Shown piece after piece: positions 1,764 through 1,877 of a DNA stretch of 7,062 nt. This DNA is from a virus. Its lineage: Duplodnaviria; Heunggongvirae; Uroviricota; Caudoviricetes. Within the stretch, counting starts at the first letter, position 1, and each line of letters begins with the position of its first letter. The notes below the pieces were generated by a model that saw only the letters and a program-made list of their open reading frames with translations, did not search any database and was not told the DNA's origin. The position numbers and the translations under genes are program-made. The DNA lies in the IMG/VR virus record IMGVR_UViG_2579778797_000011, positions 1 to 7,062 of that record. One strand, 5' to 3'.

Positions 1764-1877
1764 GTTACCCTCCATACAAACAACTCTTTTAGAATACAAA
1801 AGATAGCAAAGTGAGTATATCTAGTCAAAATTTTTTTGCATACACTTTGCTATCAAATTGAATACCAAAGGTGTGAT
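1764..1877. promoter_or_regulatory. Divergent promoter/operator region between the Arc-like and Mnt-like genes
   Basis: 114-bp AT-rich intergenic region. Perfect 12-bp inverted repeat: gatagcaaagtg at 1802-1813 and cactttgctatc at 1843-1854, 29 bp apart. Minus-strand candidate promoter: -35 TTGACT (1828-1823), 17-bp spacer, -10 TATCTT (1805-1800). Plus-strand candidate -35 TTGCAT at 1836-1841; its -10 is ambiguous. Each repeat arm overlaps one promoter's spacer/-10. Confidence 0.55.

Follow-up and report, generated by a model that had tools for sequence, protein, structure and literature searches.

The stretch of DNA analysed here (the window; 7,062 nucleotides of the Caudoviricetes virus record IMGVR_UViG_2579778797_000011) carries two divergent genes for ribbon-helix-helix (RHH) repressors, one Arc-like and one Mnt-like, and the 114-bp gap between them (1764–1877) contains a perfect inverted repeat, which is the subject of this report. 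The Arc-like protein (50 residues; 1611..1763, minus strand) is encoded by the first gene of an antirepressor (ant) operon and matches Pfam Arc (4.4e-12) and, in the PDB, pArc (6.8e-9) and Arc (8e-5). The Mnt-like repressor (82 residues; 1878..2126, plus strand) consists of an RHH domain (Pfam Arc, 9.6e-11) and a Mnt-type C-terminal region. Its best PDB match is 1mnt (E 2.3e-6, residues 12–73), and tblastn aligns it to P22 mnt with 37.5% identity over residues 13–79, or 82% of its length; the match therefore reaches into the C-terminal region, and by analogy with P22 Mnt the protein is presumably a tetramer. These assignments bear out the first-pass annotation, which had named the flanking genes Arc-like and Mnt-like. 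Its limits for the intergenic region also hold, provided that the Arc-like protein starts at the conserved ATG at 1763..1761 (MEKEISK; GGAGG 5 nt upstream) and the Mnt-like protein at the ATG at 1878. An additional in-frame ATG lies upstream of the Arc-like start in the window (1773–1775, minus strand; MEGNMEKE...), where most relatives have CAC or CGC instead of CAT.

The module is a complete P22-type immI set, comprising mnt, arc, sar and ant: an Arc homologue comes first in the ant operon, a Mnt homologue is divergent from it, the antirepressor (446..1351, minus strand; Pfam P22_AR_N 7.9e-45, P22_AR_C 2.2e-26) is of P22 type, and a gene for the antisense RNA sar (1349..1416, plus strand) lies opposite the ant ribosome-binding site and start codon (1351). 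The sar match is full length (Rfam RF00262, E 1.4e-20; the 95.6 bits exceed the gathering score of 43), so the RNA layer of immI control is also present.

Within the intergenic region, the left arm of the repeat, GATAGCAAAGTG (site L2, 1802–1813), and the right arm, CACTTTGCTATC (site R1, 1843–1854), are 100% complementary over 12 nt and have 29 nt between them; the right arm ends 23 nt before the mnt-like start codon. On re-checking, these coordinates and sequences were exactly those first reported. Dinucleotide-preserving shuffling of the 114-bp region, repeated 20,000 times, produced a perfect inverted repeat of at least 12 nt on 9 occasions (P ~4.5e-4), and the arm 12-mer, with up to two mismatches allowed, has four matches across the window against 1.0 expected, a count reached by no shuffle. 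Together with the conservation described below, the shuffles exclude chance, and the repeat is real. Each arm is built of an inner CAC/GTG half, as found in related modules, and a type-specific outer half, TTG(C/A)TATC. An 18-bp quasi-palindrome round the right arm (CACTTTGMTATCAAATTG, 1843–1860), symmetric at 16 of 18 positions in its commonest variant, was rejected because its AAATT linker is not kept; the linker varies in Klebsiella, Serratia and metagenome modules, and the palindrome is not kept in L253 or L252. Two direct copies of AAAGGTGTG lie on either side of the mnt-like start codon with 17-nt spacing (1867–1875 and 1884–1892); the second copy is AAGGGTGTG in most relatives, and the repetition may be coincidental.

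The leftward promoter that had been placed under the left arm was confirmed by a promoter scan of 1400–2300, in which TTGACT (1828..1823)-N17-TATCTT (1805..1800) was the sole promoter-like site. Its -10 is preceded by TG, giving the extended -10 TGcTATCTT (1800..1808, minus strand), and the left arm overlaps it as described earlier, covering 4 nt of the -10 and 8 nt of the spacer. Every module type has a homologous promoter of the form TTGACT-N16/17-TAnnTT, and the arc-ant transcript is predicted to start near 1793. Between the arms lies a nearly invariant core, AGTCAAAATTTTTTTG (1823..1838), that contains the leftward -35 (minus-strand TTGACT, 1828..1823) together with an A4T7 tract and a TTG; it is identical or one base off in modules whose repressors are only 45–66% identical. 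Outside the arms is a second pair of sites with the consensus GAATAC(A/C)AAAG. The left one, L1 (GAATACAAAAG, 1792..1802, plus strand; direct repeat D1), lies over the predicted arc-ant transcript start, and the right one, R2 (GAATACCAAAG, 1860..1870, plus strand), overlaps the mnt-like ribosome-binding site.

The rightward promoter of the first-pass annotation, with TTGCAT (1836–1841) as its -35, did not survive: it failed the scan, and the hexamers 16–18 nt away (TTGAAT, TGAATA and GAATAC) make poor -10 elements. Three other placements were tried and rejected. An extended -10 inside the right arm (TGnTATCAA) and a P22-like overlapping arrangement (AATACA-N17-TATATC) fail the scan and are not in every type, and TACACT (1841–1846), although conserved in all types, has a poor -35 and likewise fails the scan; no rightward promoter conserved across module types was found. 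Antirepressor modules under LexA control, as in N15, Gifsy and SPC32H, carry a LexA box (CTGT-N8-ACAG) at the antirepressor promoter. The window contains no such box (20-mers in 1700–1900 match at 11/20 at best), and SOS control is therefore not supported. A reading of the region as an IHF site was set aside after inspection by eye.

Conservation and covariation of the arms in related modules

Divergent Arc-like/Mnt-like pairs were gathered by protein-based scans of viral contigs and species-representative genomes, by a DNA-pattern scan of metagenomes and by look-ups of diverged Mnt-like proteins. A scan of the species-representative genomes with the core motif pattern gave 0 matches, and the protein-based rescan of the same genomes gave 13 loci; of these, L239 went into the footprint comparison, and the type-D Tatumella locus L243 into the 16-module correlation described below. 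Most matches to the short core pattern in viral contigs were chance, A/T-rich occurrences, and these were filtered out.

One group of modules has the core AGTCAAARTTTTTTTG in common, with Mnt-like proteins that are 62–77% identical to that of the window and Arc-like proteins that are as little as 45% identical. Type A comprises the window and other E. coli, Serratia and Klebsiella modules; types B and B' occur in O157:H7 lambdoid prophages, phage 611R6 (vB_EcoP-611R6) and Salmonella; types C and C' in Pectobacterium and Klebsiella aerogenes; type D in E. coli and Tatumella; and type F2 in one lineage. The sister types B, C, C', D and F2 resemble the window in this core, in the 29-bp inner gap, in the leftward promoter and in the layout of four sites, whereas P22 itself and three other distant modules are without the core and have a single palindrome beside the arc start. 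In the outward direction from the core, the arm sequence is CACTTTGCTATC on both sides in type A, CACAGTGATAC (left) and CACTGTGATATC (right) in type B, CACGATGATAC and CACTGTGATATC in types C and C', CACCGTGTAG and CACTGTGTAGCA in type D, and CACAATGATAC and CAATTTGATATC in type F2.

The 18 distinct cores of types A–D align free of gaps, with the arms in the same columns and always 29 bp apart, and modules that keep two arms at these positions come from E. coli, Serratia, Klebsiella, Pectobacterium and Tatumella. Over the 12 arm positions of these cores, 85.6% of cells are complementary, compared with 11–61% when the partner arm is slid by 1–3 columns. Five of the 12 positions have changed on both sides (28 cells), and the observed covariation score was reached by 0 of 500 shuffles. 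In types B–D, each site is palindromic round CAC-N-GTG, the central heptamer of P22 Omnt (GGTCCACGGTGGACC); the inner sites read ATCACnGTGAT in types B and C and CTACACnGTGTAG in type D, compared with CACTTTG(C)TATC in the window. The centre column of this motif is unpaired in 13 of 18 sequences, and therefore fits a protein site rather than a stem. In their invariant position, constant gap and joint changes, the arms resemble protein-binding sites, and the data fit the earlier suggestion of two separate operators, as opposed to the half-sites of one dimer.

Within type A, the window and a Serratia module (Mnt-like proteins 79% identical) show 5 differences in the ~80 nt from GAATAC (1792) to CCAAAGG (1871), and the leader adjoining this block is mostly different. 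Both arms are kept in the Klebsiella and metagenome type-A modules. GAATACA at L1 is kept in the Serratia, Klebsiella and metagenome type-A lineages, in which the adjacent leader diverges, and R2 is kept in four type-A lineages despite a variable R1–R2 linker. A perfect repeat is not the conserved state: the arms match at 12/12 positions in 11 and at 11/12 in 36 of 47 distinct type-A contigs, the commonest right arm being CACTTTGATATC, and the match is 10/12 in the Klebsiella and L253 modules. As regards conservation of the repeat in homologous modules, position, gap and joint change thus held up, and the perfection of the twelve pairs did not.

Probable assignment of the sites to the two repressors

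We consider it reasonably probable, with moderate confidence, that the arms are two operator copies bound by the Mnt-like repressor in a P22-type immI control region, and that their inverted arrangement arises from one asymmetric site that points outward on either side of a shared promoter core. The first-pass annotation had proposed that one or both RHH repressors act through the repeat; natural recombinants allow this to be narrowed, by inference, to the Mnt-like protein for the arms. In L038 and L258, the recognition strand of the Arc-like protein is VVDCIVRM(S/P)P, and in L254 and L262 it is ISRIVVRMPQ, whereas the Mnt-like strand is DI(S/A)PYGVRMPD in all four; their inner arms and spacer are identical and their outer sites are different. 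Conversely, the modules with an SRI-type Arc-like protein (B, B' and C') all have AATCAC at their left outer site and GTGATT at the right one, the latter although it adjoins mnt, whose type differs among those modules. The N-terminus of the Mnt-like protein is SISPTTVRIP in the window and DIAPYSVRMP, DISPYGVRMP or DISPMGIRVP in the sister types, the type-B sequence being MTKVRDIAPYSVRMPD....

Two metagenome contigs with a C' module, L206 and L220, independently carry the same 1-base frameshift in mnt-like, possibly marking a decaying prophage lineage. They are weaker as evidence because of this frameshift; versions of the same type with the gene intact were then found (L254 and L262).

The distance between the arms of module pairs was also correlated with the distance between the N-termini of their repressors. 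In the 11 modules with differing repressor strands, which exclude type D, distance over both arms follows the Mnt-like protein (r=0.79, P ~8e-4; partial 0.80) and not the Arc-like protein (r=0.07; partial -0.20). The same is seen for the left arm only, on the arc side (Mnt-like r=0.72, Arc-like r=0.02).

In type D (L039, L040, L048, L243 and L236), the Arc-like protein (RDIAPLGIR) and its Mnt-like partner (RDISPMGIR) have the same recognition strand, and the palindrome CTACAC-N-GTGTAG occupies all four control-region sites. This type thus differs from the others in that an Arc-like protein carries a Mnt-type strand and one motif is common to the four sites, for which the two repressors, judging from these sequences, probably compete.

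Several observations weigh against assigning the arms to the Mnt-like repressor. When all 16 modules are included, type-D-like ones among them, arm distance correlates with both proteins (Mnt-like r=0.60, Arc-like r=0.75), and the partial correlation is larger for the Arc-like protein (0.67) than for the Mnt-like protein (0.45); both repressors correlate here because the type-D Arc-like protein has the same strand as its Mnt-like partner. The modules are few (about 6–8 types) and related by descent, so that the correlations are indicative and their permutation P values overstate independence. In P22, it is Oarc (308–328) that sits in the spacer of Pant, with the -35 and the -10 on either side, and Omnt (337–355) lies at the transcript start; by position alone, the left arm, at the spacer and -10, would be an Arc site. 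The change from G to T between the arms of type B (CACnGTG) and those of types A and F2 (CACtTTG, CAAtTTG) parallels a change from Arg to Lys in the Arc-like strand (SRILVR versus SKILVR or SKVLVR). Neither 12-bp arm of the window is palindromic by itself when tested for the two-fold symmetry of the ~17-bp classical Mnt operator, in which it is unlike that operator. As none of the four placements of a rightward promoter passes, the effect of the right arm is uncertain. In the literature library searched, no study of this module or layout was found, which is absence of evidence only.

A rival reading takes the arms to be operators of the Arc-like protein. Produced from the ant operon, this protein would shut both divergent promoters, as P22 Arc does through one operator in the Pant spacer, and the outer GAATAC sites, near the transcript start, would be left to the Mnt-like protein, in keeping with P22 Mnt. 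The position of Oarc in P22, the 16-module correlation and the parallel between Lys or Arg in the Arc-like strand and TTG or GTG in the arms (types A and F2 versus B and C') all point this way. We nevertheless regard this alternative as unlikely, although the most serious one, since it must contend with arms that are identical beside Arc-like strands as different as VVDCIVR and SRIVVR, with the loss of the Arc-like correlation once type D is left out, and with the fact that what SRI-type modules have in common lies in their outer sites and not in their arms, even at R2 beside mnt. The spacer element TATATC (1816–1821), which types A and B had suggested as an Arc-like operator, was rejected, as type C' has a different spacer with the same type of Arc-like protein.

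Explanations that dispense with a repressor fare worse. It is very unlikely that the arms are mirrored promoter elements, each with TGnTATC as a possible outward extended -10, to which no repressor binds. The left arm on the minus strand does contribute to TGcTATCTT of the scanned promoter, and the right arm on the plus strand reads TGcTATCAA (TGaTATCAA in most relatives and in type B). However, a -10 accounts for at most 7–9 of the 12 positions and leaves CACTT outside, and TATCAA has no T at -7 and no -35 16–18 nt upstream. The right arm of type D is without such a hexamer while the inverted symmetry is still there, and concerted changes (GATA to GTAG, among others) keep the arms alike without bringing them nearer to the promoter consensus.

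More improbable still is a role at the RNA level, in which read-through of the minus-strand late tail operon would yield a hairpin that serves as a terminator, pause or processing site for the downstream tail genes. The minus-strand RNA 1865..1785 does fold with a 12-bp stem (-16.1 kcal/mol, z=-2.6 against shuffles), followed by UUUUGUAUU, the arms covary, and read-through of the ant region of P22 is thought to affect tailspike levels (PMC2629481). Against this, the 29-nt loop contains the conserved promoter core, the scan of 1400–2300 detected no rho-independent terminator, and the stem, with G-C pairs at 5 of 12 positions and a 29-nt loop, is unlike the G+C-rich stem, 3–8-nt loop and following T run of such a terminator. 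One stem position is the unpaired centre column already described, 36 of 47 close relatives have a mismatch that no G-U pair rescues, and the sites of types B–D are individually palindromic, with extra copies in types C and D that have no pairing partner. An invertible promoter segment, a recombination site or a chance palindrome can be practically dismissed: inverted repeats do flank a short promoter-bearing segment, but its orientation relative to arc-like and mnt-like is the same in every module recovered, no recombinase gene is nearby, 29 bp is far too short for site-specific inversion, and, as noted above, shuffling and conservation rule out chance.

Proposed control of the module and comparison with known systems

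On the assignment of the arms to the Mnt-like repressor, this protein would, in a lysogen, sit on the left arm, over the extended -10 and spacer of the leftward promoter, and block that -10, keeping arc-like, a 67-residue open reading frame (ORF) and ant silent. At the right arm, between the -35/A-T core and the mnt-like start, it would limit expression of its own operon from a presumed mnt-like transcription start, so that occupancy of this arm would amount to negative autoregulation of mnt-like and the ClpP-like gene behind it. After infection, or upon loss of the Mnt-like protein, the ant operon would fire. At that stage the Arc-like protein would take effect through the outer GAATAC(A/C)AAAG repeats (1792–1802 and 1860–1870), which may be its sites and are the best candidates for them; these cover the predicted ant transcript start and the mnt-like ribosome-binding region. 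The sar RNA would damp translation of ant, as in P22.

A more speculative proposal, which we think distinctly unlikely, treats the quasi-symmetric four-site region as one unit. A Mnt-like tetramer would place its two dimers on the two arms, bridging an intrinsically bent A4T7 core and clamping the shared -35/UP region of back-to-back promoters, with the Arc-like protein, on the outer sites, either competing or cooperating; the type-D Arc-like protein, having acquired a Mnt-type strand, would form a dominant-negative or co-repressor pair with its partner. If true, this would be a repression geometry unlike any described for Arc or Mnt.

The first-pass annotation had likened the arrangement to the Pant/Pmnt region of P22, and the comparison is apt for the gene set, for ant and for sar: in both, a mnt homologue is divergent from an arc homologue followed by ant, sar lies opposite the ant start, and a repressor site, in the window a proposed one, overlaps a strong TTGAC-type promoter of the ant operon. 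It does not extend to the layout of operators and promoters. In P22, Omnt is a single 17-bp palindrome at the start of Pant and Oarc a single 21-bp site in its spacer, and the divergent promoters overlap fully in a 90-bp gap. In the window, the gap measures 114 bp, the leftward -10 is not followed downstream by a 17-bp palindrome, and the conserved A4T7 core stands between two outward-facing copies of one site, with a second pair of sites flanking them. Moreover, GTCAA and TACAC, which are adjacent in P22, are separated by ~12 bp (AATTTTTTTGCA). The window also differs in having the 67-residue ORF, without a P22 counterpart, in the ant operon and the ClpP-like gene behind mnt-like.

A further parallel, no more than a resemblance, is with the Omega repressor of plasmid pSM19035, an RHH protein whose binding sites are 7-bp WATCACW heptads arrayed directly or inverted. 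The likeness lies in the RHH fold, in several short subsites of mixed orientation and in the type-B subsites, (A/T)ATCAC(A/T); by contrast, the subsites of the window contain TCAA/TTGA, not TCAC/GTGA. Most likely, the region of the window is a rearranged P22 immI control region and not a system of a new kind, with novelty confined to the layout and the specificity.

Genomic setting and significance

Between arc-like and ant lies the 67-residue Cys-rich ORF (1411..1614, minus strand), which matches phrog_7150 (3.4e-50), a family of unknown function; an ORF is annotated at the same position in phage 611R6. It contains CxxC...CxxC motifs, and its PDB matches are only weak and RING-finger-like. 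The ORF at this position in the Pectobacterium module L258 (257–442) matches Pfam zf-C4_ClpX. On the other side, the ClpP-like protease gene (2126..2662, plus strand; Pfam CLP_protease 2.2e-11) is probably co-transcribed with mnt-like, because its ATG overlaps the mnt-like stop codon (common base 2126). The zf-C4_ClpX match and the coupling to a ClpP-like gene hint at a link to proteolysis in the module that is lacking in P22.

The immI module of the window is inserted between lambda-type tail genes L and K, and the frame to the left of ant presumably corresponds to the C40 peptidase gene annotated for related prophages of E. coli. The same tail operon has received a second cargo insertion: a complete OmpC-type porin gene (3627–4790, minus strand; Pfam Porin_1 1e-140) lies between tail genes M (4997–5338) and L (2719–3459), and is annotated as ompC in E. 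coli genomes with the same arrangement. A P22-like E. coli prophage has a 99.5% identical copy of 1400–2200, flanked there by the DNA-transfer genes and the tailspike gene. The immI cassette (446–2662 in the window; L001 5021–7263; L002 3071–4726) thus occurs in two unrelated virion contexts, namely at the junction of tail genes L and K in the window and in O157:H7 prophages, and in the DNA-transfer/tailspike gap of P22-like prophages; it therefore travels as one unit. It is the 'ant moron' of the epsilon34 genome paper (PMC2629481), and P22 immI likewise occurs in this mobile form in late operons.

Phage CUS-3 (L235, 1700–2490) has two tandem genes annotated mnt and, upstream of ant, an unannotated Arc-like frame, the 3' half of which is 94.6% identical to that of the window and which adjoins a different control region (GGTACGCAT repeats); judged by its sequence, it exemplifies recombination within arc. 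Among 5,426 complete E. coli genomes, 98 have the type-A control region. In ~300 genomes, mostly O157:H7, lambdoid prophages carry a sister type between tail genes L and K, and Stx-converting phages have more distant Arc/Ant relatives at this tail position.

The discovery is modest, in that the repeat is an ordinary regulatory element whose function is as expected. It concerns, however, a textbook system: P22 immI is the model for RHH repressors and for antirepressor control of prophage induction, and the window represents a widespread alternative wiring of its parts. Ant inactivates prophage repressors in trans, and the sites that silence ant therefore bear on the cross-induction of co-resident prophages, possibly including toxin-converting ones, and so on prophage cross-talk in E. 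coli, O157:H7 included. In addition, the natural types, with their matched changes in operator and repressor N-terminus, offer ready-made specificity-swap pairs for the study of DNA recognition by beta-strand repressors.

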